From: Botryllus schlosseri
Lineage: Eukaryota
Length of the DNA stretch: 64,000 bases
NCBI GenBank assembly: GCA_051294905.1
Contig: CM119371.1
Location: 12,898,001-12,962,000 of the forward strand
Reading direction: 5' to 3'
This document shows positions 6,053 to 62,300 of this stretch, piece after piece. The notes beneath the pieces are model-generated. The model was not told the origin of the DNA, did no database searches, and saw nothing but the letters and a program-made list of their open reading frames with translations. The translations under genes were made by a program, and so were the position numbers. Each line of letters starts with the position of its first letter. Position 1 is the stretch's first letter.

Positions 6053-6084
6053 CCCCTGACGAGTCTCAGCCGAAAATATTCGGG
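6053..6084 (+). ncRNA. Candidate minimal type I hammerhead ribozyme (Penelope-like remnant)
   Basis: ccc-CUGACGA-g(ucucagc)c-GAAA-AUAU-UC-ggg: core boxes, palindromic loop 3, 3-bp stem I; degenerate inverted copy at ~11190-11250. Confidence 0.45.
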
Positions 6085-12239: not shown

Positions 12240-13357
12240 CGTCTTCGTTCTTTGAATCCGAAGATCTTTTGTGGAAAAACGTACGTAGGTGTTGTACAGA
12301 CGGAACCCCTGCTATGTTAGGAACCCGATCTGGATGTCAAGCTCATGTTAAGATACAAAGTCCGAATGTAAAAGGTATTCACTGTATGATTCATCGTCAT
12401 GCGCTGGCTTCTAAAACGCTTCCTGCTCCATTACGCGAAGTTCTTGATCAGGTAGTTAAAATAGTCAACTTCGTTAAAGGAAGTGCTCTTAACTCCTGAT
12501 TATTGAAGAAACTATGCAATGATATGGATGCAGATCACCAGGTACTTTTTTTTCATACGAGTACTCGTTGGCTTCCAAGGGTAAATGTTACCCAATGTGT
12601 TTTCGAGCTGAGAAACGAGCTTAAATTATTTTTTGATGTTCAAAAGAAATCGGAATTTGTTTCATTGCTGAATGATGATGAATGGATTAGACGTCTTGCT
12701 TATTTGGTAGATATGTTTGGTCAATTGAATAAACTAAATCTGAAGACGCAAGGGAAAAACACCAATAAATTACTATTTAAATACGCTTTGAAAGCTTTCA
12801 CCAGCAAACTGGACAACTGGAAGAGAAAAGTTCGATTGAGCAATGTTGCAATGTTTGAAGTAATATCATCAGTCATGGTTGTTGATGGAGAGGAACAAAT
12901 TATTCCAGAGATGGAAAAAGAATTGATTTTGCAACATCTGGCGTCAGTGGAATCTGAATTCATTCGATATTTTCCCGAAATTGATGACGATGAGCTTGAT
13001 TTAATCCAATGTCCATTCACATTGCCGGTGGAAAAAGTTCCCGATAAGTTGCAGGATGAATTTTTAGAACTCAAAACGGATTCTCGCGAAAGAGACTTGT
13101 TTAGGGAAAAATCAATTACCGAATTTTGGCCATTGATGTTTGAATCATATCCCAAAGTGGCCGAGAGAGCTATTAGAACTATACTTCCGTTCGTCTCCAC
13201 TTACCTATGTGAATCAGGATTTTCAACGCTTTTGCAAATGAAAACAAAGCAAAGAAACAGGTTAAACGTGGAGAATGATATTCGCTGCGCTCTGTCCAAT
13301 ACTCTTCCACGCATTCAGGAGTTGTCGAAACAAAAGCAATCACAAGCTTCACACTGA
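12240..13357 (+). pseudogene. hAT (Buster/Charlie, ZBED8/SCAND3-like) transposase, 5'-truncated with an internal stop
   Basis: TDGTPAM, IHCMIHRHAL (CxxH), TRW, FVSTYLCESGFS dimerization motif; right TIR ggttgggaaccactg ends at 13591. Confidence 0.9.
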
Positions 13358-13790: not shown

Positions 13791-16700
13791 CATGAATACC
13801 ACAAACAATAACGATAATGCCTTGCATTACGTGGTAGATTACTATTTTCCGAAGTAATAATGATATGCCTGTCTCGGCCGCCCAAATCTTGAGTTTTATG
13901 ACTGGGTCGAGTTATGCACACCGGTCGAGTCACTTTCCATATCATAGCACTGATTCGAGTCAAGTCTAGTCACCTAAAAAGCTCGAGTCGAGTCATTTTG
14001 CCATGTCATATCCATTTACGAAGTTACAATATATTGCTAGCCATATTTGGTTGCTTAGCTAACTGTGCTGCATTCTCCAATCACGTGATTACGATCTATC
14101 CCCAGTTTAATTATGTTATATATCTACAGCACTGACTTCTGTCTCCATCTGTATGAATAAACACAATTCGCAGGTTGACACGGTATAGTTTAGTCACGCA
14201 GCGAATTAGATAACTGGAAGTAGAACTGCTTCAATCGAAATCCCAACAGCCTCGGTATTATCTCTGTCTGAACGAGAAAAAAAGGGGATGAAGGGATGTG
14301 GATTGTGGATATAATGTGGCTGCCATATGCCTCCGGCGGCTTTGCAAATGTCTTCTTATAGTCAGTAATAATTGGCCTCGCAGGTAAAGTGAAAAACCAC
14401 TGGCTCGGTTACTGCAGAATATTTTGCAATTGAGCACAGCTGCTCCAGTTGTACAGTCGAGGGTGGTTAAAAGGCAGAGGGCAATGATTCATGTGCTCGA
14501 ATCTGAATGAATTTTCAATTGCACGGATTCGAGCCGAGTAGTGAGAAATGATTCTTTAGAATATTGAAATTATGCATCGCTAACAATTGATTTATCAACG
14601 ACAATAATAGTTTCGACAGTGTTTCCCAAGTGGTTCATGATAATTCTACATTTCAAATAGCAATTTACGACACAATATGAGAACGCTTCTCAGAAGTGAT
14701 GTATCTCGGTACTACACTCTAAATCCGCAAGGTCGTTTTGAACACTTCGTAACACATTATTCCGTGTGCAGACACACTTTTTTTACGCATATTAACACAT
14801 TGGGCCATAATCGTCGCAACACTTCTGCGTATTTCACCGTTTATATGTAACGCTTCGCATTGCGGCTTACTTTCAAGGTAATTTATACTAGGTAATTGGT
14901 TATCAATTTTGTATTTAACATGAACAATAGGTAGGTTTGGAATTACATAAAATCACAGCGTAATAAAATAATATTCTTCAACGGACCAAATCACTAAGTG
15001 AGTAATATTTCAGTAAAATAGACATCTTTCCCTGAGACGCAAAGACGTCACCACATTCGTTACGGTAGAGCTGTTTCGTTTTCAGTTAGGTTGAATTGGT
15101 GGTTCGCCAGGGAGAGAGTTCGGTACACTAAAAGACTTGGCGCAATGGATAAATTTAAGCAGTTTCTACTACCTAATGGCGTAAAGGATCATCACACCCA
15201 TGTACTGTAAGGTATGGGAATACGGTGAATGTTATTGAATATATTTAATGTGAGAATAGCCATAAAATGAGCTCGTTTTGACATTGCAGCAGGGTCGTTT
15301 GATTTAGATGTTTTGGTAGGCTACTGATATCTCTCACTAAAAAGTATGTTCTTTCGATATTTTGCAGTACGTGACTCGCCTGAGTTACGGGTTCTGGAAT
15401 AGATATAAGGATGGCAGGAATCGACAATCTTATTGCTGGATTCTTGAGCTTTGAATCTGATGACATGCCAGGCTGCGACCAGGTCCAGTACTACGGTACT
15501 AATGGAAAGCTACTATCGACCTAACTTTTTTGATGTATGGATAAAATTTTGTTCTCTCTAGCCACACTGAAATAGCCCTATCTAGGCGATATTGTGGTCC
15601 ATTGTGGACAAGTACTGCAATGTCAGAAATTGATCACCGCTATGACAATCAGTCAACGGTTTTGATGGTTTTGCAACTGCAACACATTTTACATTGCACG
15701 GTTTATTACAAGTTGTAAGGTAATAACTAAGGCATAGGAATTGATTCTTCTATCAAAATCCGCATGATAAAAAATTATGATGTAGGCAATATTGTCATAA
15801 TGAATAAAAACGGTTTGTCACCAATAGTGTACGCAAAACTTCAGTGTTTCCTGTCAACAACTGCTGCTGCTGCTGTAGAACGTTCTTTCTCCATTATTGG
15901 CAAGCTATACTTAGTAAGGACGGACACTTTCTACCCGATATTGTACTACAACAAATTTTTAATTATGTCTATCATAATACGAGATGTAACTAACTATTAC
16001 TGGAATTCTTCATGGGTCCAGATTTCGATAACATATGGTTTATTTCAGGCCAAACTACTTCGTAAGATTAGACAGTTCCAACCACAAATAAAGATACATA
16101 GTACATTTCTAGCATTATGTGGGAAAACACTTAATTTACATACATGAGGTCAAAATTTGGTTACAATTAAGTTTCTTAAGGTCATAATATGTTGAAATCT
16201 TGCTTCTTTTTAGGTCAAAAAAATCGCCCTAATAATAACACAGCCAAACAGTCTTTTCACCAAACCATGGATTACAAGTGGATGTAATTGCTTTACCCAA
16301 TCCCTGAATTTGACTTTCCTAAGTTTATTATGATACGGTAACTGAACTAAACTCTATTGTGCAGGTAGTATGTATTGAAATTGGCACCTTTTTGAAATGC
16401 ATTTGCTGTATGGAATGCTGGTAAGCATCGCGGTGTTTTGTTAGTATACTGGTATATCCGATAATGAATTTGATTCTGATGCATTCGGTTATCTTTGTTA
16501 TAAAGATTTTTATGAATGTTGATAAAATTTCACCAAAATGATTAACAATCCAGGAACTATACTACCTGTGCCTGAGTAAAATTTGTATGTATGTATAAGG
16601 GGTTTTATGGTGCTCGACTACTAAGGTCTTGTGCACCAGGCCTGGGGGAGCTAATAGTTGAATCATATACGTCTACACAATACAACAAATTCTATGACTG

Positions 16701-18416
16701 GATTAACCATACGCGGGTCAGTCAGACAGTCCAAGTTAAAGCTCACACTGCTCTGTTCAGCTACATTTTTTAAATATTGTCTCTGGTGATAGTATCGAGG
16801 ACACGTTAGTAGGAAATGTTCGACAGTTTCTGGTACGCTGCACGTTTCGCAGAGACCACTGTCATGACTATACTACCTGTGCGTGAGTAAAATTTGTGGT
16901 AACGTCACGTGTAACTTTCCATTAAATTTCCTAATTATTCTATGAAAGACTCCTATCTGTCACGCACAACTTATTTCCGATAACAACAACTGTATCCATT
17001 CTGATATCTGTGTGAATATTGAATAGTTCATTTGTATTGCAAATTTTTGAAACCAATATTTTATTTTCAACAGTCTTGGATTGATCCTCAAATTCGTCCA
17101 ACTGATGCCAAGTCCGTGAAAAGAGCCCCTTGGTTCTACTGTGCCTACGCTATCACACAATGTTGACAGTGACTTGAAGAGTCACTCGTTAGCAGATTTT
17201 GTACCGGTGCAGTCATTTCATGCGATACAGACGTTTCTCTCAAGAACCCCTAGAAACATGTGAGGATGTAAGCTTATTTAATAATTTTATATATCACCAT
17301 TGATTATTTAATGTCCTGGTTTTTGCAGTCCTACTTTTCTCAAACTATCTCGCAGACTAGACTACGGACTATGCGATATGAGCTTAAAAAGTCTTCATCT
17401 GTGTACGTAGGTGTAAACGTAATGATCTCATGTAACTTGTATTTAAACTATTGCTTACTGAAATATAACGCACTATGTGAACATCAAATTGGGAGCATTT
17501 TCCATAACCTGCTAATTCAAATTAATCGCATTAATTAAATTTAATCAGGAATGGAGGATTTTAAAACATTGAGAACAGTTACAATTGCTGCAATGAAGGA
17601 AAAGTACTCAACACCTTCGATAAGATGTCACAAAGTTTTTGCACTAAAGACGATCGTAGTGTCCTTTGTCTGATATATTTCTAGATTAAAAGTTTATGTA
17701 AAGCCTATGTCAATTATTATAATGGAAATGTGAACCCATAGGAACAACGATTCTAACCCCATTAATGCAATTTATTTTACTATATTTATTGTCTGATCCT
17801 ATTTGCAATCAATTTTATTTTCAGAAAAATGACGTTGACGAAGTCAACTGTCTTCATCTCCAAGCAAAATTGAGAGACAAACGAATATATTTTTCAAGAC
17901 CCGTGTTCATGTCTTATCATTGAATCAGGTAATATTTCTGTTTTATGGGACATACAAATTTAGATAGACCTGCAACGTTTTGTTATAAATTTCATTCAAC
18001 GTTACATTTTCTGCATTTTCACTGTTGTCTGTACATCTGAATGTAAATGTAAATGTCAAAATGGCCGAATTGATAAAAAGACAGACCTGAGTAAAGATAT
18101 TTTTATTAGTCGTTTTGCTAATTTTAGTCTTACTCCTACTCAGTGATAGGATTTCACATGTAGCCGAGCGCCTTTCATGTGCTTCTGTAATCTACCTGTC
18201 TGAAATATTTATATTTATTTCTGCATAAAATTTAGAATTTTCCTGGGCATATTCAAAACTTAGGTATTTCATCATATTTTCAAGGAGCACCACCTGAAGT
18301 CTACCAGTAAAAAGACCGAGCCGCCATGGCACGCCACGAATCAGGGATTCATCAAGCCTGGGTTGCAGCTTACCGCAAGAATATAAAAATGCTTCAGCAA
18401 AGATTGTTGCTACTAT

Positions 18417-19610
18417 CAGGGCTTTGGAGCCGGAGCCCGGAGCCGGAGCCCCGGAGCCGTACATTTTCACCGGAGCCGGAGCCGGAGCTCTACATAAAAT
18501 CCAGCCGGAGCCGAAGCCGGAGCTGGAGCCCGTTATTTGAGGAGTAGCTCCGGCTCCGACGAATTTCATAAAATGCTATTATATATGCAACAACCACATC
18601 TGCTGATTTATCATAATTGAACAGCAGGCCCGAATTTTAATGCTGTGCACAGCAATGGCATAGAGTAAAGTGCGTTCTAGTGCAACTATGACAATTGACA
18701 AGTATTCATTATGACGCCACACGCCGGCATGGCGGCACCTATGTCTTCGTTGTTACATCGGATGTTACTGACGGCTGACAGACTCTAGATTACTATAGAT
18801 AACTAACCTATGGGTAGATTAGTAATCTATATAGACCATGAATGGCCAACCTTATCGGCTAAATGGGCACATGCAATTGACGAACGAGTGCGCGGTCCAC
18901 TAGCCGCGCCAAGCGGGTAAAATTTTCAAAGTTTATAAATAAACTATAGGTCAATAATATTATTACTTGAGTATATTGCGGGTCTACTGTATACCGCCCG
19001 CTAGGCTCAGTTTGCAAGGACACGACTATTCGGCGTCTGGCCACATCGATATCGAAGGTCTCCAATAATATGCGACAATAATTTTGTGCCTACATTTCAC
19101 CGTCGACGATCTTTATGCGAGCGCAAACGTGAAAAGACTTTCTCCCATAATTGCGAATACAGTTAAACTCAATCGGACAAATTATAGGCGTTTTTTTTTC
19201 ATTCTCAGTAGAGGGTAGGCTACCAAGCATGAAATCATGTGACAATAAACACGCGAAGCGTGAAGAAAAATTTCACTACTATTTTATTTTTCACTTCTAG
19301 TTTATTGTAATGTATGACGATTTACTGAAAATGTGACTGGACCCTGGAGATGCCGATGCGTCGGAACTGATATTTTAGTCATCAACATCCCAAGTGTCGC
19401 AGCCAGACTTGTAATTTTTGGTTGGCATTGCAAGTTCACAATCTGAGCAATTCAGTTTCGATAATATAATAGTAAATTACCTCGCGGACCACGCAAAACC
19501 CTCTCGCCGGCCGCCGGTTGGCCACCCGTGATATAGACAGGGTCATTCGATAATTTCAGAGCCGGAGCTGGAGCCGGAGCAGTTTAAATTTACGGCTGCT
19601 CAAAGCCCTG
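18417..19610. mobile_element. hAT MITE with (CCGGAG)n subterminal repeats, carrying a nested MITE at 18837-19530
   Basis: TIRs cagggctttg / caaagccctg with TSD gctactat; the nested element has TSD atatagac; absent from copy A. Confidence 0.9.
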
Positions 19611-20654
19611 GCTACTATGTATTGGATTTCTCATATCCTAAATGAGGACTTCTCAAACTGGGGGCGTGAAATCGTTTGAAGGAGCGCGAAGCTGCAGTCA
19701 ACTGAAATTTTTTTCGCGCGCGGTCCGATTTACCTCCAACTCATAACAATTTCTCTTTGTATGGTCATAATTTCATATTTGAGTATTCTCTCCTCAACAT
19801 CCATTAACTTCCGTGCCATCAAACTATCCGTTGGGATTTCTAGCATTCTGGTTGATTTTTATTTTATGATATGACGATAAGGGGTGTGTGAAATTCTTGG
19901 GTGTCATAAAGGGGGGGGGGGCGTGTCTTACAAAGTTTGAGAACCACTACCCTAATGACTTCAAGATTTCAATTTTTTTGCAGCGGGCTGTGGTAAAGGA
20001 AAACAAAAATTTGTATTGACTCGAAGAAACGATTTCTTTGTTGTTTAAACTAAAAGTGATTGGCATTACCCTGATATAAATACTTGTAATGCAAGCACTA
20101 GAATATTTTTGATGCCTGGTTAGCGGGCCCAATTTCATGCCGAGGTAACAAATACTTGTGGTTGGTTTTCATGGTAGCGGTAGTGGTACTGATACATTTG
20201 TTTTGTTTGTTAATAATACAATTTGGAATTTACAAACCATAATTTGATAAGTTTTCAATAAGTTGTAATTATTTGCATTGGTCATGTTTTCTGCTAATCG
20301 ACGTAACCATAACCAATAAAGTTGATTCCATGCCCCTGTCATGAAAATTTAGGACACTAAATGATATTTTGTTATCACCATCCCAATGCATCGTTTTCAT
20401 TCCCATGATTGAGTGAGCTGCATGATTTGTAGTGAGTTTGCTCTGAATCATTTGTGATGTTCGTGATTTCATGGATTATTCCGGAAACGGTTTCAACTGC
20501 TGATTAGAATTTATGAAACTCTGTCACAGCAGCTATTGAAAATTTGAATTTTTGCACGTATTTATTCACCCAGTTTGGGTATTATAAGTGTCAATGATTC
20601 AATAAAATCTGATTTCATTTTGAGCCCTGCGTTCCGCTGACAGGTCAACCAGCC

Positions 20655-23303: not shown

Positions 23304-26040
23304 ATGGAGATGCTACCAGATTTTTTTGATTTGAGTGGTATAACATTTTCTCCTAACGCCGCGGTAAAAGCTACGAAGTATTTCATGGAGTGCTATGTAC
23401 ACGATTTGGGCATACAGATTGAGGAGACAATCCACTCTTATTGTGGAAGCAATATTCTGGTGAGCGGGCGATGTTATCGCAGTATGCGGAAAAGTGAGGT
23501 GCCACATTCGATGGAAATCAAAGTTTTTGGAAAATCCATTATTGATTCATCTTGCACTTGTAAGACAGGGTAAATATCAAAACTGTCGTTTCTTCAGAGA
23601 ATCTTGCAATAGATATTGTTGATTTCTTTCAGACTTGGTTCTGATATATGCTCTCATGCATATGCATTAATAAAGACAATTCAGTACCTGAAGCTTCAAG
23701 GACTGAAAGACATCCCAAGGGATTTGTCATGCACAAGCATACCGCAATCATGGAATGTTCCACGTGGAGAAAAAATTCAGCCGGCACCAGTGAGCTCAAT
23801 CGTGATTGCCAAGCCATCTATTGATCGATATCGCAACCCATCTACTCCGTCTGCCTTAAGGTAAATTTTACTATATCTGGAGCCTTCACCTTTCTAATAC
23901 GCTTCCGAACATAACTAATCTTAGGACATCTGCACCTGGAAAACTGTTCATTCAACAAATCGGACATCTGAATGAGCTTCAAGGCACACCACTGGAATAT
24001 ATTGTGAACAAAGATACACCGTTGGTACCCACTGACCACGGCATCGCACAGTTAGGATCAGTAGCATGTTATCAGGTGATCAAGATATACGTTTACGATC
24101 TATACATTGGAACTTGAACAATTGCAGGATAATAATTTTCATTAAATTTTGTTTTTAATCAACTTATCTTGAAATAGAGTGTGCAAAGCACAGATAGTCC
24201 AGATTTTGTTGAGTTGATAGATAATACTGCATGGTATGACACCGGTCAAAATTCTATACTCTTTGATTCTTCCGATCAGTCGTTCAATATGGATACGGTG
24301 TCGTGCAATCCTTCTTGTTGTGGAGCAGTCCGGCCCTGACATTTGACGGTGTGCAGAAGGCCGTGGAGGAATATTCAAATTTAGATTCAATTTTTGATAT
24401 CTGACTCAATGGTGAATCCCTTGTCTGCCATAATAGCATCTCCTGCTGCGATATAGCCCAAGTCCATCATTTCTGCAATTTCCTGTATAATCCACATTGC
24501 TCGGTAATATTTTTATCTGATATGCTTCCGGTGAATAGTTCTCCCACAAAAATCACTGCACTGCCTGGGTCACAACCCACCAATCCTTTTAAAATCGTAT
24601 GTGATTTATAGTCCGAATAAAACTGTGATTGTAGTCGCAAAGAGCTTGGGGGTTGAGTCTTCAGCTCGGTACAGTCAATAATCACTATAGTTTGTGGAAA
24701 TTCACGAATGAATTCAGATGGTGCATTTTTTAGAATCACATCTCTATGTGGCCAGATTGAAATTTTGATTAAGCAGCTATACATGTGATTCACCCAATTG
24801 TTGAATATTATGCTTACAGTATTGATAGAAATTCGAATTCTGTGGGATAAGTCCAACAATTGGAAATTTCTCCTCAGTCTTGCCAATGTTAATAGCAGAT
24901 GATCTGCACTACCATGCAGGGATAACTCGAAGCGATTATCCGGATAATTCACATTACCATCACATGTCAGAAGTTTATGTAATGCCGAAAAAGAATTTGG
25001 ATGTAGTCCAATATAGAATTTCATAAGTTTCTCCGAATCTTTTGACATCATGATACTTTGAAAACTGAACTTTGCTAGCATTAGTTCGTTTGTCAAATTG
25101 TTATTTTCCTGGCGGAGTTTCCTGTTCGCTGCGTCTAACCCTTCTAGGAATTTTATTCTTGTGTTCTTTCCATCAATTTCCTCTTTCATACACTGGATCT
25201 GAGCAGCTTCACATAAGACGTCCAATGAGCCTGTAGAAACATATTTTTATTTTACAGAGCAATTCCGCTGTGCGGGCACCTGTCAAGGCATACTCCTCCA
25301 ACTCCTGCAATGTTTCACCACTACCAATAGCATCAACTATCCGCCTCCCTACTGAATATAACGGTCTCAAGCAATTTCAAGCCATTACACATCACCAAGC
25401 AACAGCACTAGAGCGGAATACTAGGATGAAAACAATAAGCCGGTTGTGGCACCATGAAAGAAAGCTCCGTCTGACCGCATCTCAGTTTGGACTTATTTTG
25501 AAACGGAAAAGTGTGCCTTCTAAATCATTTCTCGATTCCATATTTAAGCCACGGAAAGTTATTGCTGCATCAGTCAAGTATGGCCAGGCCAATGAACGAA
25601 AAGCTCGGCAACAGTACAGCAGATTGAAAACTGTCCACACTCATAACTGCGGCTTGGTAGTCAACCCAGAATTCCCATTTTTGGGTGCCACTCCTGATGG
25701 AACAGTTTGTGACGGCGACGGATTTGGAATTATGGAAATCAAGTGTCCATATTCTGCTCGGGAAATGTCAATTGAGGAAGCTGTCGCCAAAATAAAAATT
25801 GGCTGGCTTACTATGTCCCCCACGACTGGCTACTGTCTTCAACCTGGTAGTATATATTATTACCAAATCCAAGTTCAAATTTTGGTAACTGGTGCCCCTT
25901 GGTGCGACCTTGTTGTCTATACTAAAATTAGCTTGGAAGTAATCAGAATATACCCAGATATTCCTACAATTCCAAGACATGCTATCTCGCCTATGCCACT
26001 TCTACAATGAATATTGCCAGCCGTACATACGCAATCTTTA
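23304..26040 (+). CDS. Spliced SWIM zinc finger + YqaJ/lambda-exonuclease protein; predicted exons 23304-23569, 23633-23860, 23925-24075, 25258-26040 (probable 1-bp frameshift near 25970)
   Basis: GT-AG junctions join in frame; SWIM CTCKTG/LGSDICSH; YqaJ motifs RLTASQF, LGATPDG, EIKCPY, YYYQIQ. Confidence 0.85.
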
Positions 26041-47300: not shown

Positions 47301-50300
47301 ATCAGCAAATAGCGGATAGCCGAAGGGGGGTCTGGGGGCGAAGCCCAGCGGCGGTTGCTTCTGATTTCGCGGTCAGTTATAACTGGTACATCCCACAGAA
47401 TTTTTATCTGGTCGTTTTCTGTCACTGGTACTGGCCCAGTCAACAAAATGGGAAGCGATCGCCCGGCGTATTACGCGCATTCGATGTCAAAATGATGCTT
47501 CAAAAGAAACAATTTTCGCACTTCAGCCGCAGACTCATTAACCCTTTTGTTGCCGTTCATTAACCCTCTCGCCACCGCAGCTGACAACCGCTAGTAACCC
47601 TATCGCTACCTGAGTCATGGTTGCTTTCTGGCAGATATATTAACCTTATGTTGAAAGACATCACAATTTCACAATATGTTTTCATTGTCGTGTTAGTCAT
47701 ATTACAATCCAGCACGAGCATACATTCAAAATACCGGTCAAATACAAACAGACGGTCATATGAAATGCATAAAACGACACAGTCGAGATACAGAGAGATC
47801 TTCTTTCCTGGACCAGTTTCATACAACTATTCCTGCTCTTGAATTAAAATACAGACAATATCTGGTTTATCAAACAAGTCTGTGCCTTGGCGGGAAGAAT
47901 AGGATCAAGGCAACGCGGAGCTACCATCAGCGTCCAGCTCACTGTGTGGCACGCTAACTTGGAGTGTTTTTCTGATACTTTTTGCAGTAGGTTGTGATCA
48001 GCTGGGACAGCCAGTTCAATGAATAAGCATTCTCTTTTCTTTTTTAGTTTGACGATTATATCCGGGCGGTTGCTCCTGATTTCGCGGTCAGTTATAACTG
48101 GTACATCCCACAGAATTTTTACTTGTTCGTTTTCTGTCACTGGTGCTGGGCTGTAATCATACCAATTTTTTGTCGAAGTGGTGATGTTAAAATGTTTGCA
48201 TAATTCAAGATGAATGTAGTGACCAATCATATTGTGTCTCAACTCTCCATGTGTATTCGGTATTATTATTATATTCTTTTAATCACAGTAAAACTGGTAG
48301 ATACACACATAATCCGGGGAGCAACCTGCCCCCAAAGGAAAATGGCGAGATTGGAGTAGATTTTAAAAATTTCAGTAATACATTCAAATTGTTATTCCTA
48401 TGCAATACACGGAGAAGTCAGATTACAGAATTGCAGCAGATGAAGAATTGGCAAGGGTTACAGAGCAGAGGTAGAGATGATTGAAGATGAAGAATCGAAA
48501 TTACAGAAATTATGCTGTGATTCACAAGTGTAATTTTAGTCCAGTGGTGCATTCAAGGCCTTCCGAAGAATGTGCACAGTGCCCAATAATGTGATCTTCT
48601 GGATCATGTCGAATCGAACGTTACCCGGAATTTGTTGGATATGCCTCATGAGTTTTTTGCTCACGACCCCTGTAGCACCAATGACTATCGGTACAATGTT
48701 TATTTTGCATCGCCACATTTTCTCACATTCCATTTTGAGGTCTGCGTATTTGGAGTGTTTTTCTGATTCTTTTTGCAGTAGGTTGTGATCAGCTGGGACA
48801 GCCAGTTCAATGAATAAGCATTCTCTTTTCTTTTTTAGTTTGACGATTATATCCGGGCGGTTGCTCCTGATTTCGCGGTCAGTTATAACTGGTACATCCC
48901 ACAGAATTTTTACTTGTTCGTTTTCTGTCACTGGTGCTGGGCTGTAATCGTACCAATTTTTTGTCGAAGTGGTGATGTTAAAATGTTTGCATAACTCAAG
49001 ATGAATGTAGTGACCAATCCTATTGTGTCTCCATGTGTATTCGGTAGCTGCAAGTGCACCACAGCCGGACATGAGATGTGCTACAGTTTCATTTTGGTTG
49101 TGGCACATTCTGCATTTGCCGTCCGTGTTTTGCTTCAGAATTCTTTTCCGATAGTATTTTGTAGGAAGCGATTGGTCTTGTGCTGCGAAAATGAATCCTT
49201 CGCTTGCCGGTTTCAGGCCAGAGCTGGATAGCCAGGTCCATGAAAGCTCGTCTACATGGGGCTGTGAAGTTAACTTCTTGTGCTGTCCATGAAGAGGCAT
49301 CGATTCCCATATCGTTTCTCTCATTTTGAGCATTGCATTTTAGTACTGAACTCGTGCTGCTTTTGCTATTGTTGTGGGTTTGGCAACAGTGTTTTCAGCA
49401 GTGTACAGATTAGCTGTTTCCATGTTGACTTCTCTGACGTACTTGTCGTGACGATAGCTCAGAGATTTTGTTTTGCGCTGTTTGTCTTCCTGTGCAATGA
49501 GTATGCAGTAAATGTTTTCGCTGTTGTTGATGTACTGTGACAAGCCAATGATTTCTGTTTTGAAAGTTTGTTCAATTTCTTGTAGTCCTCGACCACCTTT
49601 TTTTCTGGGGATGTATAGTCTTTGTGTATCAGATTTTGGGTGATGCATGTGGTGCATTGTCATCAATTTTCTCGTCTTTGTATCCAATTTTTTAATTTCA
49701 TCTTTGCGCCAGTTCACCACACCAAAGTTATATTATTATTTTCTTTATTCACAGTAAAACTGGTAGATACACACATAATCCGGGGAGCAACCTGCCCCCA
49801 AAGGAAAATGGCGAGATTGAAGTAAATTTTTAAAATTTCAGTAATACATTCAAATTGTTATTCCTATGCAATACACGGAGAAGTCAGATTACAGAATTGC
49901 AGCAGATGAAGAATTGGCAAGGGTTACAGACCAGAGGTAGAGATGATTGAAGATGAAGAATCGAAATTACAGAAATTATGCTGTGATTCACAAGTGTAAT
50001 TTTAGTCTAGTGGTGCATTCAAGGCCTTCCGAAGAATGTGCACAGTGCCCAATAATGTGATCTTCTGGATCATGTCGAATCGAACGTTACCCGGAATTTG
50101 ATGGATATGCCTCATGAGTTTTTTGCTCACGACCCCTGTAGCACCAATGACTATCGGTACAATGTTTATTTTGCATCGCCACATTTTTTCACATTCCATT
50201 TTGAGGTCTGCGTATTTGGAGTGTTTTTCTGATTCTTTTTGCAGTAGGTTGTGATCAGCTGGGACAGCCAGTTCAATGAATAAGCATTCTCTTTTCTTTT

Positions 50301-53300
50301 TTAGTTTGACGATTATATCCGGGCGGTTGCTCGTGATTTCGCGGTCAGTTATAACTGGTACATCCCACAGAATTTTTACTTGTTCGTTTTCTGTCACTGG
50401 TGCTGGGCTGTAATCGTACCAATTTTTTGTCGAAGTGGTGATGTTAAAATGTTTGCATAATTCAAGATGAATGTAGTGACCAATCCTATTGTGTCTCCAT
50501 GTGTATTCGGTAGCTGCAAGTGCACCACAGCCGGACATGAGATGTGCTACAGTTTCATTTTGGTTGTGGCACATTCTGCATTTGCCGTCCGTGTTTTGCT
50601 TCAGAATTCTTTTGCGATAGTATTTTGTAGGAAGCGATTGGTCTTGTGCTGCGAAAATGAATCCTTCGCTTGCCGGTTTCAGGCCAGAGCTGGATAGCCA
50701 GGTCCATGAAAGCTCGTCTACATGGGGCTGTGAAGTTAACTTCTTGTGCTGTCCATGAAGAGGCATCGATTCCCATATCGTTTCTCTCATTTTGAGCATT
50801 GCATTTTTGTACTGAACTCGTGCTGCTTTTGCTATTGTTGTGGGTTTGGCAACAGTGTTTTCAGCAGTGTACAGGTTAGCTGTTTCCATGTTGACTTCTC
50901 TGACGTACTTGTCGTGACGATAGCTCAGAGATTTTGTTTTGCGCTGTTTGTCTTCCTGTGCAATGAGTATGCAGTAAATGTTTTCGCTGCTGTTGATGTA
51001 CTGTGACAAGCCAATGATTTCTGTTTTGAAAGTTTGTTCAATTTCTTGTAGTCCTCGACCACCTTTTTTTCTGGGGATGTACAGTCTTTGTGTATCAGAT
51101 TTTGGGTGATGCATGTGGTGCATTGTCATCAATTTTCTCGTCTTTGTATCCAATTTTTTAATTTCATCTTTGCGCCAGTTCACCACACCAAAGCTATATC
51201 TCAAGACAGGCACTGCAAGACTGTTTATGGCATTGATTTTGTTTTTGGAATTGAGTTCAGTTTTGAGAATTGACTTGAGCCTGCTAATGTATTCCTTTTT
51301 TAGACTTGATTTCATTGCAGCATGTTTAATGTTGTCGCTTTCACAGATCCCTAGATATTTATAGTGATCTTCGGCATTCAATTCTGTTATGGTTTCACCC
51401 AGTTTGAAAGTCATGTCGCCAGTGCTGGTGACTCTTCCACGTCGTATGGTAAGTTTTGAGCATTTATCCAAGCCAAATTTCATTTTTATATCTTCCGAAA
51501 ACTCATGAACAATTTTCATTTGGTTATTCAGGTCTGCATCGGATTTCGCGTACAGTTTCAGATCATCCATGAACAAAAGGTGATGAATCTTTTGACCTTC
51601 AGAGTTTGCTGCTTTTTTCATCACATATCCTGTTTCATTTTTTCTCAGCAACTCACTGAGTGGAGCTAAACTGAGGCAGAATAGAAGTGGTGAGAATGAG
51701 TCGCCTTGAAAGATACCATTCCGTATCTGAATTGTACAGGTTTCTGTTTCGCCTTGGTCATGTTTGATCAACAGTTTGGTATGCCAATTTTTCATTGAAT
51801 CTTCAATAAATCTGATGATGATCGGATTCATTTTGTACATACGCATTGTTTTCAGTATCCATGTGTGAGGGACTGAATCGAAAGCTTTTTTGTAGTCTAT
51901 CCATGCCATGCTGAGGTTAGTGTGTCTCCTCTTGCAGTTTTCAAGAATGGTTTTGTCAAGGAGCAGGTGGTCCTTACAGCCAAGGGCACCTTCCTTGCAT
52001 CCTTTCTGCTCAGGCGGAAGAAGGTTTTCTAGGTGTTTGTAGCTTCGTTTTGCCAGGATTTTGGTCAGTGTTTTGTACATGGTTGTCAGGCATGTTATCG
52101 GCCTGTAGTTCTTGGGGTCCCTGGTGTTTTCATTTTTTGGAATAAGATAGGTGATCCCTTGTGTGAACCAGGCTGGGATCTCGTGCGAGTTGGTTGAGGA
52201 TAAAAGCTCATTGTAGGTCGCCGCTAGGTAATTATGTGTTGCAGTTAGTTTTTTTAGCCAAAAGTTTTTGATCTGGTCAGGACCAGCTGCTTTCCAGTTC
52301 AGTGAACTTTTTAGGGCCTCCTTGATTTCTTGTTTTGTGATTTCTGACCATTGTTGTTCTGGTGTTTGTAGGTGGTCAGTGTGGAGGTCTTGTATCCAAG
52401 TTGCATTTGAGTTGTGCAATTTTTCGGTTTCCCATATTTCCTTCCAAAATGATTCCAGTTCTGCAGTGGCTGGAATTTTGCTGCTGGTAATTTTGTGGTT
52501 TGACTTTTGTTTCATCATTCGGAAAAATTGGCCAGGTTTGCGAGTAAATAACAAGTTTTGGCGATATTGTGTTTCACGTTTTTTATATCGTTTCAATCGT
52601 TGTGCTTTGGCGCATATTCTCATTTTCAATTCCTCTTGCAACATTGTCACTTTTTCTGTTGACTGCAGTTTTGTTTGGTGCTCCAGTTCTATTTTTTTAC
52701 TTTATTTTTTACTTTGCGGGAAACATTTCCTTTTTTTAGTTCCGAGAGTATCGCAACATCACACCTTAGTTTTGCGATTTTGTTTTCAATTCTGCGTTGC
52801 CAAGCTGGCGTATGGCTTCCCCTTTTTTTGTTGACAGGTCTTGGTATTTTGCAGTGCCTTTCTGAGATAACTGCCGCAGTGCTGTAAATGAGGTTGTTGA
52901 TTATCGTTAAGGGACATTGTGGTCTTTCTCCTTTTTTGTCATTTATTGCAGGTAGTATGGTTTCTGTCAAAATTTTGTTCGCTACTGCAATATCAGTTTT
53001 CAGTTTCTTTGTAATTTGTAGGTCAGGTAAATTCACTCTGTCATTTATATCCAATGTGGAGTTCATTCGGTCGATAATTTGATTTTTGATCTCCAATTCT
53101 AATTCTGTGTCCATGTCATCAACGTTAGGTGATGTTGGTTCATTCGGGTGCCCGATGGTGTTTTGTGATTCTACCTCTGGGATGTTCAGGTCGTCAAGTG
53201 GTTGTTGCGGATACAGGTCATCTTGGCCGAATTGAAGTTCTAGTGCCTCAGAGTTTTCTGTGTTTTTGTCACAAATTTCGCTCTCGATTTCTGCGAGTTC

Positions 53301-56300
53301 TTGTTCTGATAATTTTTTCATTACACAGCGTCTCATAGTTGCCAGGGTATTGGCAGTCATGGTTGGAGAGTTGTTTGTTCTCTCTTTCCATTTTTGAAAA
53401 GTTCCTACGGTTACTCCTGCCGAGTTTTCAAGTTTGGCTAAGAAGTAACATCTCATTATTTCTTTATACTCTTCTTTACTCCATCTGTGTCTCTTCTTTT
53501 TTTCTTTTGCAGCAGAGCTGTTTTGTGGGCCACAGTTCGGTGTTGCACAGGCGCCATGTTGAGAAATATCTTCTCTTTGGTGTTCCTGTGTGGTCGGAGT
53601 TGACGAGTCCTCTGGGGTCATCCGCTTGGTCCCACGGCGGGTACGTCCAGGTGCGATATATCCAGATCGTTTCGCAGGCATCCACAGCAGTGATGCGTCA
53701 GTGCAGAAGTTAGGTTACGTTAAAGTAATTAATTAATTATTAATTAATGCTTAATACAACCAAATACTCCAATTATTATTATTATTATTAATTACGTGCC
53801 CTTTATTTTCCCATACAACAGCTCACTCAACGCTACTGGTAAATCTGATTACGTGGGCTGGGAGGATAAAAAGTTTATAGCGACTTATATGTAATTACCA
53901 CCTATTCATTCATGCATTATAGAAATTGTTGGTACCTAGGACGACCAGGCCACACAAACTTTGCTAACCATCGAAATCACGCTACGGGGTTCTTGGGGCG
54001 AAGCCCTCAGAAGTTTGGCTTATCACGCTATGGGTGCGCAAGGCAATCGTTTTTAGGGTGGGTTGACGAAGTGCTGTTACGGCCCTCCCTCTTACTCATT
54101 TTCTTTATTACATTCCTTACAATATGAGGTTGGGGGGCGCTGGAGCACGATAGTTTTTGAAAGGGGGCGCTGGAGGAAAAAAGGTTGAGAACCTCTGATT
54201 TATTCCATACCTAGTTTATACTATACCCAAATTACCCAAAATAATATTCTTCAAATTAAAACTTACTCTTACCACCATTTACAAAATGCATTGCCATACC
54301 TTGTAGTATGATCACCCATCACAAACTTAAGCAATATTAGGATATACAACCACGATTTTTATGCTGTCTGCAAAGAAGTTGAAAAATTGTGTGAAAAATG
54401 AAAAACTTACAATTCCGCATTGAAGCTATAATCTGCCTTAACCCACGAAGTGCGACGATGAAGACATCGTGCCATGTAACGGATTAATCAGCCGCGACAG
54501 CTAGAGCGTGAAGGTCCTGTGGAAATTTCAATAAATTGCTGCTCCATTACGGCGGCGTTATGAAGGAAATGGCTGCGGCCAAAATTGTTTCTTCGTTTTG
54601 CCCTTCAATTTGAGACCACATCCTTTTTAGAGCGCAGTGCCCCTTTAACGTCTCTTTCCACTGCCTGGTTGTGCCAATTATAATTGAGCCTTAATGGCGA
54701 TGGCCTTAGATTTTCTTGCTCGAGATATGACTAGTTTTTGATTTCTGGTGGCTGTTCCATATCTTTTAGATTCAAGTTGACAATTTGGTGGTTTGATTTA
54801 GCCTTGATGTTTATAATTGGGATTTTAAACAATCTGATTCCAGTGCCAACGTTGTTTTTAGGTTTTGGTTCGTTAACATATCCTCCTTCAAAGTCGTCAA
54901 TTGGAAACTGGTATTCTGTTTGATCTGCTCATAGTTGTATTCTTGTTAACTGCAAGTCTTCTGAGGCCTTCATCATCATCCCTGGGCATTCCCAGAAAAC
55001 ATTTTCCGTATGTGCAAAATATGCCTTTTGCTGTAGCACCGATAGTGCAAGTTTACGAATTCGTGTATCAGAAGGCTTTGTAACATGGGAAACTATGTTG
55101 TAGAAGTTTTTAGCGCCATCAACAATGGAATTGTGCAGTTGATCTGTCCCACATAGACCACAGATGACTTTCTCGAACATGGAGCCTCAAAATTCGGCAT
55201 GTTCTATGTGGGATTTTAACGGCATCATTGCGATGCGATGGGGATCACAGCTATGAGTACGCCTGCCACAGTCATCATCAGTTCATCCACATATTTTGTC
55301 TGTCGTGTGCGAAATATTTTTGAAATATTGTTTTCGCTAATCATCTCGTACGTGGTGCAAAAGACCTAATCGGTTATAAGCGCCACTATTCTGACTTCTC
55401 CGTGTATTGCATAGGAATAACAATTTGAATGTATTACTGAAATTTTTAAAATTTACTCCAATCTCGCCATTTTCCTTTGGGGGCAGGTGGCTCCCCGGAT
55501 TATGTGTGTATCTACCAGTTTTACTGTGAATAAAGAATATAATAATAACGGACTTGTGAATCACAGCATAATTTCTGTAATTTCGATTCTTCATCTTCAA
55601 TCATCTCTACCTCTGCTCTGTAACCCTTGCCAATTCTTCATCTGCTGCAATTCTGTAATCTGACTTCTCCGTGTATTGCATAGGAATAACAATTTGAATG
55701 TATTACTGAAATTTTAAAAATTAACTCCAATCTCGCCATTTTCCTTTGGGGGCAGGTTGCTCCCCGTAATATGTGTGTATCTACCAGCTTTACTGTGAAT
55801 AAAGAATATAATAATAATAAATCCACATATTTTGCCGTCACTGTCTATCTCTTTTACGACATCTCAAGAAAACTAGCTTTTCTGCTTTTAAAAGTAGCAT
55901 TCCTGCAGAGTGCTTAATAATTACCATATTTTGCCATATAAATGGTATTTTTAATCACCTAATAATAAAGAAATTTCACTCTAGCCTCAATCATTCAAGG
56001 AACCGGTGGCGATGTGCACTTTACGGTGAAAGACCAAGCAAAATTCAAAGTGGTGCTTGATCAAAGTACATCACGCCGTAAAGGTGAGTTTATTTGAATA
56101 TTTTCCCGTTCGCATCGTAGTACCTGTATGGTTGTTGTAAGAAAATACATGATGTCCACGAAAATGTTCATCAAAGAGCTATATCGTTGCAGTTAAATGA
56201 ACGACTCATTCAGGTGTTGAACCTCGAACCACCATCAGCATTTCAAGAATTTAAAGCAATGCTAAGTCGAAACCTATTGTGCTGCGCACAAATTACTTTG

Positions 56301-59300
56301 CTGAATTGAGTAGCTTATCAACGATAGCAATCCCTCATGATATATTTCCCGACGCGATTTTCACTTCTATGCATATATATTCCGCATCTGTGGCATTGCT
56401 GATTGGGATGAGTGTTAATGTTCGCAAAATAACTTTATCTGTTGACATGAGATGGAAATGGGATGAAGAAGCGGTGATCGACCATTTTACTATTCACTGC
56501 CGCATTTTGATTACATATATATTGCTTACTGGGCAACTTCGCACCGAGGAAAGTCCTTGTACAGTTCTGTGCCATCACTGTTTTCTTGTGACATATACCT
56601 TGCGCACGGAAGTTTCTAATTGTCGAACACTCCTGAACTTGCCCCTAGACCAAGGGTGGGCAACTTCTCCAGTCGGCGGGCCGGATATAGAAAGATTGGG
56701 TACTTGGCGGGCCAGATTGCTGAATCGATACATTATTTGCCCATTAATTCATACATATATCATAGATGGAATAGATCGTATTTAATGACAGTAGTTTAAC
56801 GAAGCAATGATATTTCAAAGCTACTTGTCGCCGATAATGACGAAGATAATGTAGATTTGATAACAACATTGTCATGTAGTTCTGATACTTTTTTGAACAC
56901 GCACCCCTTTTTGATAGTGAAAAATTCCGCGCATCTCTTATCGTGATATCACAAATATCAAAGAGGTGAATCAGAATGCTACCCCCCCCCCCCACCCCAA
57001 CGGATAGTTTGATGGCAATAAAAGTTATGGCTATTGATGAGATAATTCTGAAATATGAAATTCGGACAATAGATAGAGTAAACAGCATGAGCTTGAGGAA
57101 AATCGCGTGGAGTGCGAAAATTTTATTCAGTTAACTGTGACTTCGAGCCTCCTTCAGATGCTTTCACGCCTCCCAGCTTGAGAACCACTCTGATACATGC
57201 ACCGCCAATAATGCTTTTCTCCGATCAATCAACACACGGTGGTGCAATCCTTAATTAGGATTTTAAGTTGTTTGATAAGCCCGGTACCCCAAATTTACCA
57301 AGATATCAATTCATTAGGATTGAGTAGGTGGCGAGAAAGCGCTGTGGTATAATCCACAGCTACAAAACCCAATGTGTTGTGGGTTCGAGTCCGACTCTAG
57401 AATTGCTACTTAAGTGTTGGAGGTTTATCTAGACTCCTCCTCGCCTCGACTCCACTACTAAGCGGTGTCTCACAAAAGCCTTAACGCGTACCGTGCTACC
57501 AGTTGGTGGTTACGAAAGCAGTCGACAAACACCATGATTACCACAAAAACATTGGGGTTAAGTAGCTCCATAGTAAATGCTGACAGTGCAAGTCTTCTCG
57601 CTTCGACGAATTTACCCGTTAGCTCAACTCTCACACGCTGCTGCGCAGTGCACACACACGAATATATTACCATACAGTCACTTAAATTTGACGTAGTAAG
57701 CAAGTAGTGGGGAATCTCCGCAGACTGACCGGCTGCAGGCCACATTATCATGTGAGGCGGGAAGTGGCTCGCGGGCCGGACAAAATGCCGTCGTGGGCCG
57801 GGGCCGTAAGTTGCCCGGCCCTGCCCTAAACAATACTTGCTTAGAATGTGAGGCTGCTGTCCGCCACAAACTCATCCTAGATATTTTAGAATCCTCTATC
57901 TTTCAGTCGTCACGCTACGAAAATCGCTACAAACTTGCAACAACAACAAAAAGGCAGTTGGAGTAGAAAGGTCAATTAGGCTATGTTCCGACACGGCACT
58001 GAAATCAATGAGTGGCGCTTTATCAGGTGTCGGGATCCTGTCTGCTGCACACTAAATCTGGCAATCTGGGTACTAAGCAAGCGTTGCGTATCAACTATCT
58101 TCTTTTGTCAAATACAAGCAGTCCAAATGAATATACGGAACAGCTTATTCAGAAGATACACGTTAAATGGCGAGATTCGCAAGATTGCTTGCTCGTCCGA
58201 TAACAGTTGAAAAGGAGAATGAAACAACAGCAACAGCGAAATATAAAGGTTAACGAGAACGGACGGCGCAATAATTAACCAATCATCAACCAAACAGAAC
58301 AATTAAGAGGTGTCGAGGAAAATAACGGAACGCAAATAAAGGACAGTTGAATTAAACTGATTCACTAAAACATCCAAACTGATTAACTAAAAACATGACT
58401 CGTCAAAACACTCCCCCACTTGACCGACTATGATCGGTCAACAGATTCTTCTATCAGCAAATCTTTCCAACTTGTCGTTCAACGAAATCCATGGATCAGG
58501 TTTCAACGAAACGTCCATTGACGCGGCTGTTTCAACTTCACCTTTGTGGTGGATTCGTCCCAACGCAGTAGGCAATAATGTGTCTGTATCGAAATCCCGA
58601 AACGCGGGAGTGGAAACGTCAACAGTTGATACCATACACTTAGCGTCAATCAATGGTCCCGCAGAAACGTGTAACAATTTGTGGTGGGGTTTCCCACAGC
58701 CAGTAACGGAACAACGCTCCATACATTGATGAAAATGCTTCGGGTGGTGTTTGTGTCCTTTCGGGGATAAGCATCTAAAACACACTTTACCAGCCTTCAT
58801 AACCAAGTCAGCCAATCGCTGGGCGGGATTTAATTTCAGAAATTTAAAACAATCTTTCAATAAATGAGGTTTTGAGCAGTAGGTGCATGATAGCTGGACG
58901 GATTGAACCACGAGAGACTGGGCAGAAAATGAATTGTCAGGTTTATCGGTACCAACACTAACCAGCTCATCTTTATGTGGGGGCTTTTCACGTACGTCAA
59001 CAGGGCAACGCCCATTCTGCGACTTACGCAACGATTCCATCGTCGCCAACTCGGTTCTTAGAAACTCAAACAGGAGATCAGAATCAGGAATCTTATCGGC
59101 TTCGATCAAGGGGCTAGTTTTTCTGATCCAAAGCTCATGCAACGTACCAGGCAACTGGGACTCTAGTACCTGTGTAAAGAGTTGGTCCCAAGAGACGTCA
59201 TACTGCGATAAAACGGCCCTTTTAGCAGTAGCGGCATCGAGAAGTTGTCTGACTTTGTCGATCTTAAATTCTACTTTCTCACCCTGTAGTAAGTCTTCGA

Positions 59301-62300
59301 TGTGATTTCTCACGATCGCTTGCTTCTTTCCGTACCTTTTAAGAACGGCCTCTACTGCAGGCTCATAATTCACTGCCGCCGAGGGGAAACCATTGAGAAG
59401 GCCGGATGACGAACCTTTAAGAGCTGCCTTTAAATACGAGATTTTGTAAAACGGACTGACCTTTGGATTTTTGTGAACCAATGGCTCGAACGACTCCCAA
59501 AATGCCGGAAAAGTCAAAATATCGCCATTGAATGTAGGCGGCACTATTCCACTCGGGAGGGATCCAGCAGCTTTTTCCGCTTCTTCGGCAGCTTTCAGCG
59601 ATGAAGACTTGGATTTGGCAAGAGGAATGTGTACAAAATAAATTTCTTTTGATCTTCTCATGCCATCAATGATTTCGGTCTTGAAATCACCATCGTCAAG
59701 CTGGTCGACTTTTGAATCCACGAATGCCTTGAGATCGGTCATTGATATTTCTACCGACCGTATGAAGACCTCAATTTCTTCGACGAAGGTGGAATGTGCA
59801 TGTTTCTTCTCCAGAGCTTGCAAAGACTCTAAGAGGTCAGCATTCATGCGCCTGAACTTCTTTATAACAACCTCGTGTAGACATGAATGTTCACTTCTTG
59901 CCGATGAATGGTTATCGGACTGCTGGCGAATTTCTTCTAATTTATCGGACTGCTGCCGAATTTCTTCTAATTGCAGTCTGAATCGTCTTTCGGATTCTTC
60001 ACGGTCTTGGGCGTGTTTCTGCTTGATCTCCTCGAGCTGCAGCTGAAACTTACGGTCAGAAGCTTCCCGATCTAATTGCTGCTGCTGCCGATCGAGATCT
60101 AGCTGATGCTTCATCATCTGAAAAAGCATAACCAGTTCAGATGATGTACTCTCGGTGGTGCTCAATGGAGAGGGCTTTGGTTCTTTCTTTTGTGAAGGTT
60201 TGTCGGAATCTCGGATTTTCCCTAATCGGTCAGTCAATACAGCTTCGCTCCCACTTGTAGCTTCGCCAAGTTCTTGTAATTCGGGTCGTAAATCGTCGAC
60301 CGTCATCTTAGCTAATGGCTTCCAAGTCGGTGCCAAGGTTGGAGACTTGGGAGATTCCGATGGAGACTTCACAAACGACATCGTTCAATTGAATATAACA
60401 ACTATGTAAATGTAGCAGATTTAGTGCCAAGCAGAGTCGATCGATCTTCGTAGCGCAGCAGAGTCTTGAATATAGAGTAATACCATGCGGCGCCTGAATC
60501 GAAGAGCGTCTCGAAGATATCGGCTTTAATAGGCTTCTTGCGAATTGTTCCGACACGGCACTGAAATCAATGAGTGGCGCTTTATCAGGTGTCGGGATCC
60601 TGTCTGCTGCACACTAAATCTGGCAATCTGGGTACTAAGCAAGCGTTGCGTATCAACTATCTTCTTTTGTCAAATACAAGCAGTCCAAATGAATATACGG
60701 AACAGCTTATTCAGAAGATACACGTTAAATGGCGAGATTCGCAAGATTGCTTGCTCGTCCGATAACAGTTGAAAAGGAGAATGAAACAACAGCAACAGCG
60801 AAATATAAAGGTTAACGAGAACGGACGGCGCAATAATTAACCAATCATCAACCAAACAGAACAATTAAGAGGTGTCGAGGAAAATAACGGAACGCAAATA
60901 AAGGACAGTTGAATTAAACTGATTCACTAAAACATCCAAACTGATTAACTAAAAACATGACTCGTCAAAACAGGCTATGACTGCGAAATGTTTGCAAAAC
61001 ATTTTGTATTTGAAGTTTTCAGGATCGGCAAATTAGTGAACAGTCGTTTAAAATACAAATTCCTCATGTGTTTCCCAAATTTGACCAAAATAAGGGATTG
61101 AAACCTCGCGACGGAACCATTTTCTCCTGTGAACTTCCAGAAGAAATGGTAGCTCCCAGTAAACACTTTACAGACCAAAGATGTAGAAAAGCTGAGTCGA
61201 TATAGTAGATATTAGATCTCGGCAGGTCGTAGAAAGGGGGATTTTGTGTCGACTCGTTTTAATGTCTTTCAAGAATGTAAATATTACGCATATACTACAG
61301 CGTTTTTAACAGCGCGCGGGATGTAGATCCGCTGGTTAAAAGACCACCCTGACACACTCCCTTCCTGCTTCACCTATTTAGGCATACCTGATCATAATAG
61401 CATGCCGTCACATATGCAATGGTATCCACTACCCATTACCTTGTATTATATAAAGATCATAAAACAGATAATAACATGAAATGAGTTGGAGAAGCGAAAA
61501 CAAATTAGAATTGACATTATAGAAAAAGCCAATACAATTAACAATACAATAAAACGAGGATCAAGAAACTTTACTGAGTGGATAATATGTCTCTGCAATG
61601 AGTAATAAAATTGCTTTCAAGTGTAGGCAGATACAAAATATTACAGTTACTATGACAAATATCCATACATATTAGGATACAGCACATGAAAAGTTTACTA
61701 TATAGTCAATAGACCGAACCAAGAACATCCAAATATCATCATATTACGGAAGTAGATACTGAGGTCAGCGGAGTGCATGGATTCAGTGACAGAAAGGTTT
61801 ATGTAACAGTTATGGCACAGTGCGCAAGGATTAGGTTGGAGAGATAAATACTCGAGTCTAGAAAGTGGAATGATACTCTGCCTGGTTAGCTGAAGACCTA
61901 ACAATATTGTGTACAGAGAACAAAACATTTGAGTGGCTGCACTGGTATAGACATTACCAAATTATTAGAATTGACAGCAAGATAACCAACAAGACATTAA
62001 AATGAGAATTAGCGCAGTTTCTTAGGCTGTAGTGATACTCAGCCAGGAAAGTAATTGACCTAGCAGAGAGCAAAACGTTGTAAATAAAGCGAGCGAAACC
62101 TCCGACAAATGATACGATAAAAGATTAGAATCGACAGTCTTACTAGAAGCAGAATAACTATCATGAGGGGTTAGACAACAGAAGCCCGGGAAGTGACCAT
62201 CAGAAATTACTGCATACTGGCCGAACAAATTCATGACCACTAACAAATTGTCTTTTAATAGTCAATATTGATACCAAATGACACCACCCCTATTTCACCG

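Follow-up and report, generated by a model that had tools for sequence, protein, structure and literature searches.

A gag-only BEL/Pao-lineage element of Botryllus schlosseri that likely primes reverse transcription from its own RNA

Described priming systems and the anatomy of the element

According to the ICTV profile of the Belpaoviridae, replication is primed by a host tRNA, with an 18-nt primer-binding site (PBS) for the 3' end of tRNA-Arg or tRNA-Gly (PMC8742986). Self-priming has been proven for Tf1 of fission yeast and is listed for Tf1/sushi, Tcn1, and the copia TAR lineage in the available part of PMC6317226. The Tf1 structure, as given in the accessible portion of a preprint, comprises a primer:PBS duplex and two duplexes that join PBS-adjacent sequence to LTR sequence downstream of the primer (bioRxiv 10.1101/2022.12.06.519325). 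The TAR lineage of plant Ty1/copia (Houba, Osr-1) is the nearest parallel to the case reported here in that self-priming was predicted from sequence in an otherwise tRNA-using superfamily; however, these are unrelated plant elements, for which self-priming is likewise a prediction (PMC6317226, same part). The available portions of PMC3118150, PMC554778, and PMC6238403 contain nothing on PBS or tRNA. No report of a self-priming BEL/Pao element was found in the literature covered, outside which lay most subscription journals, Repbase notes, and supplements, so that an earlier mention is possible. Cer7, a BEL element of C. elegans, has a tRNA-like insert with a TGG-type site and has been proposed to provide its own primer. 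Unlike Cer7, the element described below contained no detectable tRNA-like structure, and an element-encoded tRNA-like primer was ruled out on this ground.

The window, i.e., the whole 64-kb stretch of DNA analysed, contained a 2,989-bp gag-only BEL/Pao-lineage element on the minus strand, running from 60972 to 57984 (Table 1). The two 427-bp LTRs showed zero differences and had TG...CA ends. The element had a polypurine tract of 11 nt and was flanked by a target duplication of 5 bp. The gag gene was a single frame of 648 codons (DUF1759, E 3.7e-21), with an N-terminal SAP-like match under the Pfam cut-off and three Cys-His boxes seen in the translation; its likeness to full BEL polyproteins ended where the protease region begins, and its stop lay 27 nt ahead of the 3' LTR. 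Neither a pol piece nor a second copy of the element was found anywhere in the window. The element is a pol-deleted, recent, non-autonomous insertion, and since its LTRs are identical and its target is duplicated, this form or its immediate parent has probably completed reverse transcription recently. The insertion target was itself another high-copy repeat (60978-61020; contig depth 120-154 in run X10).

The LTR length (427 bp, against 0.2-1.2 kb for BEL/Pao), the polypurine tract (11 nt, against about 10 nt), the gag, and the single gag-pol frame of the relatives resemble those of Belpaoviridae, and the gag nested with the BEL polyproteins P0002, P0034, and P0053-55 (SH-aLRT 96). Unlike Belpaoviridae, the window copy carries no pol (protease, RT, RNase H, and integrase), and none of four clade members has an 18-nt, tRNA-type PBS for the 3' end of tRNA-Arg or tRNA-Gly. 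Because pol is missing, we class the window copy as a non-autonomous derivative of the lineage and not as a complete BEL/Pao member. Named lineages of BEL/Pao include Sinbad, Suzu, Sparrow, and Surcouf. Tf1/Tf2/Tj1, Tf1/sushi, and Tcn1, which are Ty3/gypsy chromoviruses, share with the clade the lack of a tRNA site and a PBS that follows the CA of the LTR and pairs over about 10-11 nt with the element's own LTR. Membership in Tf1/sushi was rejected, as that group belongs to another superfamily, whereas the elements studied here have BEL-type domains (DUF1759 gag, with Peptidase_A17 and DUF5641 in relatives) and no chromodomain match in four coding relatives.

Table 1. Coordinates of the element and of its putative priming signals in the window
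Feature	Position	Strand	Basis or remark
Target-site duplication, upstream copy, 5 bp	60973..60977	minus	five letters identical at both element flanks
5' LTR, 427 bp, TG...CA, terminal inverted repeat 7/9	60546..60972	minus	same as 3' LTR
TATA-like TTTATAT; presumed initiator-like hexamer at 60784-60779	60803..60809	minus	sequence; putative promoter
43-nt block without listed variants in 80-99% alike relatives, containing the predicted primer	60722..60764	minus	variant listing
Predicted self-primer (3' ten nt), exact PBS complement	60737..60746	minus	only in the window's two LTRs
LTR stretch pairing with both PBS flanks, pretzel-like	60698..60711	minus	7/7 with 60552-60546; 6/7 with 60534-60528
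LTR arm of long U5-leader stem	60612..60622	minus	pairing with 60426-60416
U5 hairpin beside LTR end	60550..60593	minus	60593-60587 with 60556-60550; 17/300 shuffles
PBS position, no TGG, immediately after the LTR's CA	60536..60545	minus	sequence
Leader arm of long U5-leader stem	60416..60426	minus	pairing with 60622-60612
gag frame, first Met to stop	58438..60381	minus	SAP-like start, DUF1759, three Cys-His boxes; no pol
Polypurine tract	58411..58421	minus	sequence
3' LTR, 427 bp	57984..58410	minus	holds second PBS-complement copy at 58184-58175
Target-site duplication, downstream copy	57979..57983	minus	matches upstream five letters

The window held several further repeats. A LINE-type element (RVT_1, zf-RVT; 899-aa frame) occupied 47844-53714, with its 3' part present as a tandem repeat (96-98%) and once more, in inverted orientation, at 55387-55817. 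At 24467-26010, divergent DDE_Tnp_4 and YqaJ frames stood back to back, an arrangement that we take to be that of ISL2EU-type DNA transposons. A segmental duplication (2978-8554 and 15108-20601; 84-90% alike, spacing of about 11-12 kb) had a hAT fragment (12500-13357) between its copies.

Pairing of the PBS position with the LTR and leader

The last base of the 5' LTR, which lies on the minus strand, is 60546; the next ten bases (60545-60536) read ATTCGCAAGA instead of opening with TGG, and the nearest TGG was 60 nt from the LTR end. The original prediction had placed an exact 10-nt complement of this non-TGG sequence inside the LTR, and both observations were confirmed (complement at 60746-60737). 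A pairing of this length at offset 0 was equalled by 21 of 20,000 LTR shuffles, or 63 of 20,000 when offsets 0-3 were allowed; in a set of 4,000 shuffles, 13 reached it. Together with an 11-nt stem, it was one of the two longest perfect inverted matches in the LTR plus leader. Matches of at least 10 nt to the LTR occurred at three separate sites among approximately 2,100 positions of the internal region, two of which were these, and no PBS complement longer than 5 nt was present in the internal region itself.

The 11-nt stem (60622-60612 with 60426-60416) is likewise exact and, once a 2-nt mismatch is bridged, comprises about 18 pairs out of 20; an LTR-leader stem of at least 11 nt arose in 64 of 5,000 shuffles. 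As a pairing it stands as first described, but it does not represent a Tf1-type PBS-adjacent duplex, since it lies about 110 nt downstream of the PBS. As in the available description of Tf1, sequences adjacent to the PBS can pair with the LTR downstream of the primer in a 'pretzel' (bioRxiv 10.1101/2022.12.06.519325). This arrangement reached 13 of 14 pairs, a score attained in 1 of 6,000 shuffles with Watson-Crick pairs, in 99 of 6,000 with G-U pairs, and in 3 of 714 real tiles of the window; the test followed the published Tf1 definition, with the scoring rule fixed after the stretch 60711-60698 had been spotted by eye. A U5 hairpin competes with the 7-bp flank as partner of the LTR end. Extension of the duplex upstream of the primer, first spotted by eye in the four elements considered below, was not clearly above chance (266, 47, 168, and 100 of 1,000 shuffles) and is not counted in favour of the model. 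The duplex energy over the whole leader set L003 (8 of 300) and L006 (3 of 300) apart from shuffles, but not the window element (27 of 300) or L001 (207 of 300).

In a pseudoknot-free fold of the whole 5' RNA, the long U5-leader stem outcompeted the primer:PBS helix, which had a probability of about 0 and a cost of 3.4 to 11.5 kcal/mol. When the leader was shortened, the probability rose to 0.94-0.96 in three of the four RNAs. Like the Tf1 duplexes, the primer:PBS helix and the U5-leader stem cross each other and cannot be predicted together by the program, so the fold speaks neither for nor against the model. Folding of the 371-nt region was only marginally more stable than that of shuffles (z -1.57). 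In the leader, short imperfect repeats (60410-60470) offer two alternative partners for the LTR stretch 60610-60603. Should transcription begin upstream of 60755, a small hairpin (60736-60757) could also cover the predicted primer and would compete with the PBS.

The TATA-like motif was found where it had been reported (60809-60803), about 60 nt upstream of the predicted primer. A hexamer at 60784-60779, about 36 nt upstream of the primer, is initiator-like. Such spacing would give a primer longer than that of Tf1. Reads were aligned to 60250-61020 at 80% likeness (15 from run X24, 94 from run X22, and none from run X21), as were 75 contigs from run X10; because only 3 of the 109 RNA reads were at least 99% alike, the reads report relatives. 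Transcription, with the usual library orientations assumed, was mostly sense over U3 and ran past 60722, which would place RNA 3' ends downstream of the predicted primer. Among these 109 reads from two runs, mostly of relatives, neither a pile-up of starts or ends nor a splice joint was listed. A splice-made primer was rejected for the window element, as none of 391 GT-AG pairs yielded a match longer than 6 nt and the read listing showed no RNA joint.

Among the variants listed in relatives (40 of 99 substitutions and 12 of 29 indels), none fell in 60764-60722, 60622-60612, 60545-60536, or 60426-60416, and none at 60802-60810, while 60782 varied and at least 23 variable positions lay between 60657 and 60813. 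The 43-nt gap over the primer was matched in 443 of 100,000 random placements, a figure that is indicative only, given the listed share of the variants. Cross-family similarity in run X10 peaked at the LTR segment around the primer, with a depth of 62-96 vs 17-31 in the four bins on either side. Listed variants of close relatives also fell inside the pretzel flanks (60703, 60709, and 60531) with no visible compensation.

Pairing in clade relatives and control elements

Protein searches led to a clade of BEL elements, many with a SAP-domain gag, with SH-aLRT support of 99 (gag) and 100 (RT). Scans of viral contigs, genome contigs, and a first metagenome set yielded no DNA of relatives, and the ESM Atlas gave leads only, all under 0.9. 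A second metagenome scan retrieved 33 BEL loci, seven of which belong to the clade (L005 according to its best hit, the other six according to the tree). L001, L003, and L006 were the only clade loci holding an LTR end and leader; L002, L004, L005, and L008 came without an LTR end or PBS. The three informative loci fell on three sub-branches distinct from that of the window element and, like P0002, code for pol (Pfam architecture: Peptidase_A17, DUF5641); the aspartates and glutamate of the RNase H region were invariant in the clade alignment. A SAP domain at the gag N-terminus was seen in many clade members (including the window element, P0002, and L003) and in a neighbouring coral-associated group.

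No TGG occurred within 12 nt of the LTR end in any of the four clade members; the nearest was 25 nt away in L003, and L001 and L006 had none. The original prediction had named a TGG PBS in autonomous relatives as evidence against itself, and all three testable pol-coding relatives lack one. The PBS matched the element's own LTR over 9, 11, and 11 nt in L001, L003, and L006 (77, 21, and 3 of 4,000 shuffles) at offsets of 0, 3, and 2, respectively, so that the pairing started 0-3 nt from the LTR end in all four elements, with some post-hoc choice of offsets and LTR ends. The four PBS sequences differ, and each matched its own LTR over 9-11 nt vs 4-8 nt for the other three LTRs. Because the LTR ends of the relatives had been set by terminal inverted repeats (8, 7, and 5 of 9 in L001, L003, and L006) and not by two full LTR copies, the test was run again with each CA of the 220 nt preceding the ATG admitted as a possible end. 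Among 10, 10, and 11 candidates, the ends set by terminal inverted repeats were the best (164, 25, and 19 of 2,000), although that of L001 tied with a repeated PBS copy 15 nt further on; the Fisher combined p, with no LTR end assumed, was 8e-4. The L001 leader carries a PBS-like word three times in tandem (2051-2093), and three similar A+T-rich words, 19 nt apart, lie upstream of these repeats in its LTR (1841-1887).

The helper structures were less uniform. The pairing cores of L001 and L003 were A+T-rich and weak (-5.1 and -7.3 kcal/mol), and the pretzel flanks reached 9, 0, and 9 of 14 pairs in L001, L003, and L006, no better than shuffles. Of the three relatives, L006 alone had a long R-U5:leader stem (10 bp, 1 of 200). 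L001 had a U5 hairpin at the same place as the window element; the two hairpins have a 5-bp core in common and differ in two pairs (10 of 300). Since the flanks and the long stem are not common to the relatives, the shared feature is the PBS:LTR duplex, and the helper structure varies. The expected conservation of both pairings was therefore borne out in part: the PBS:LTR pairing is kept with different letters in three of three relatives, whereas a comparable second stem exists in only one of three, and no compensatory pair appeared among the close copies, whose PBS and leader were thinly covered.

In L001, the best of 430 GT-AG pairs is predicted to extend the 9-nt PBS match to 11 nt. The predicted 68-nt LTR intron (1811-1878) has a GTAAGT donor at 1811 and a pyrimidine-rich acceptor that ends at 1878, right before the pairing core; such an intron would imply a start upstream and a primer longer than its paired part.

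For the 26 loci outside the clade, the ends of 11 were viewed and five with LTR and leader (L007, L009, L013, L015, and L017) were tested, L021-L033 being left out. TGG was present in four and TGA in one, within 8 nt of the LTR end, and the best own-LTR match was 3-7 nt, none below 478 of 4,000 shuffles. The LTR ends of these controls were assigned by eye, in knowledge of the tRNA-type motif, 450 nt were used for L013, whose LTR start was not found, and L017 was placed by best hit. Own-LTR pairing in four of four clade elements vs none of five controls gave p 0.008, which overstates independence because the control elements are related to one another. In L013 (2120-2140), TGA replaces TGG in an otherwise tRNA-type site.

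Self-priming, rival explanations, and implications

We consider it likely, with a probability of roughly 0.78, that this young gag-only BEL/Pao-lineage element primes minus-strand DNA from its own RNA, without a tRNA site. What was observed is the structure of the element, the pairing, the recurrence of this pairing in family-specific form across the clade, and the lack of it in TGG-type BEL elements; the TGG-less relatives and family-specific PBS:LTR pairing support the proposal of tRNA-independent priming in a BEL lineage. By analogy, the element likely works like Tf1. Following the available portions of work on Tf1/Tf2 (PMC5341516, PMC4600332), the transcript would begin inside the 5' LTR, no further downstream than 60746 (candidate starts, 60748 to about 60782). 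The segment 60746-60737 would then anneal to the PBS, its 3' U lying on the base that immediately follows the LTR. Supplied by a pol-coding partner, RT/RNase H would act in trans and cut after 60737, as in Tf1, the new 3' OH would be extended into U5, and the 3' LTR copy would serve to restore the sequence that lies upstream of the cut. As the primer is copied in plus-strand synthesis, the PBS would be rewritten in each cycle, so that both sequences could stay matched while drifting. Differences from Tf1 are that the primer here is only predicted and may extend past its paired part at the 5' side, i.e., it may be a longer 5' piece than one starting at 60746; that the pretzel flanks do not exceed chance in the three relatives; and that one relative (L001) is predicted to assemble its match by splicing.

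The primer could be the element's own sequence but come from the 3' LTR copy, a second packaged RNA, or a small LTR-derived RNA, which we judge improbable. The PBS complement does occur in both LTRs, sense reads of relatives cross it from U3, so their 3' ends contain it, and no start site was found in the RNA reads. The corresponding segment of L001 is also TATA-box-like, with AATAAA 38 nt later (32 nt in L006), a spacing that would equally suit a start downstream of the segment. Against this, the window segment is not TATA-like, and that of L001 directly follows a canonical-looking acceptor whose use lengthens the match, which points to a transcribed exon. Moreover, cleavage within the 3' LTR would deprive that molecule of the R copy on which strand transfer depends, and the only tested precedent uses the 5' end (PMC5341516, available portion).

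A structural or regulatory pairing (site masking, or a translation or packaging switch), with a host RNA such as a half-tRNA as the actual primer, seems a shade less probable again. Four different PBSs would each require their own host fragment in addition to the own-LTR match, and the start of the pairing within 0-3 nt of the LTR end in all four speaks against it, even though half-tRNA priming has been reported in several Ty1/copia lineages (PMC6317226, available part) and the predicted fold contains competing structures. In half-tRNA-primed elements (Osser and Bianca type), the PBS is complementary to a cut point inside the tRNA. Chance matching in a defective copy that lost its tRNA site, with coding partners that use tRNA, is very unlikely: the copy is non-autonomous, its own coding partner was not found, and offsets and ends were partly chosen post hoc, but the identical LTRs and target duplication point to recently completed reverse transcription, and three coding relatives repeat the pattern at the combined p of the conservative test.

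The feature is real; self-priming is known, and BEL/Pao is the superfamily in which it has not been described in the literature covered. Self-priming may also extend beyond this element: we regard it as an even bet that a whole old animal BEL/Pao clade with SAP-domain gag left tRNA priming independently of Tf1/sushi and copia TAR, with a capped 5' fragment that pairs by its last 9-11 bases as primer, and that some members build this end by splicing an LTR intron. Bulk and single-cell RNA data exist for a species in which the family is transcribed, and the start site and primer junction should therefore be readable from natural material. If true, the BEL clade would mark a third independent origin of self-priming, this time in animals, and would show that the RT/RNase H of all three LTR superfamilies can adopt it; a primer end built by splicing would tie retrotransposition to host splicing. 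Self-priming would also explain why PBS-dependent LTR finders miss such elements. tRNA fragments act in defence at the PBS, as known from work in mouse, and the clade would be freed both from the tRNA supply and from this defence.
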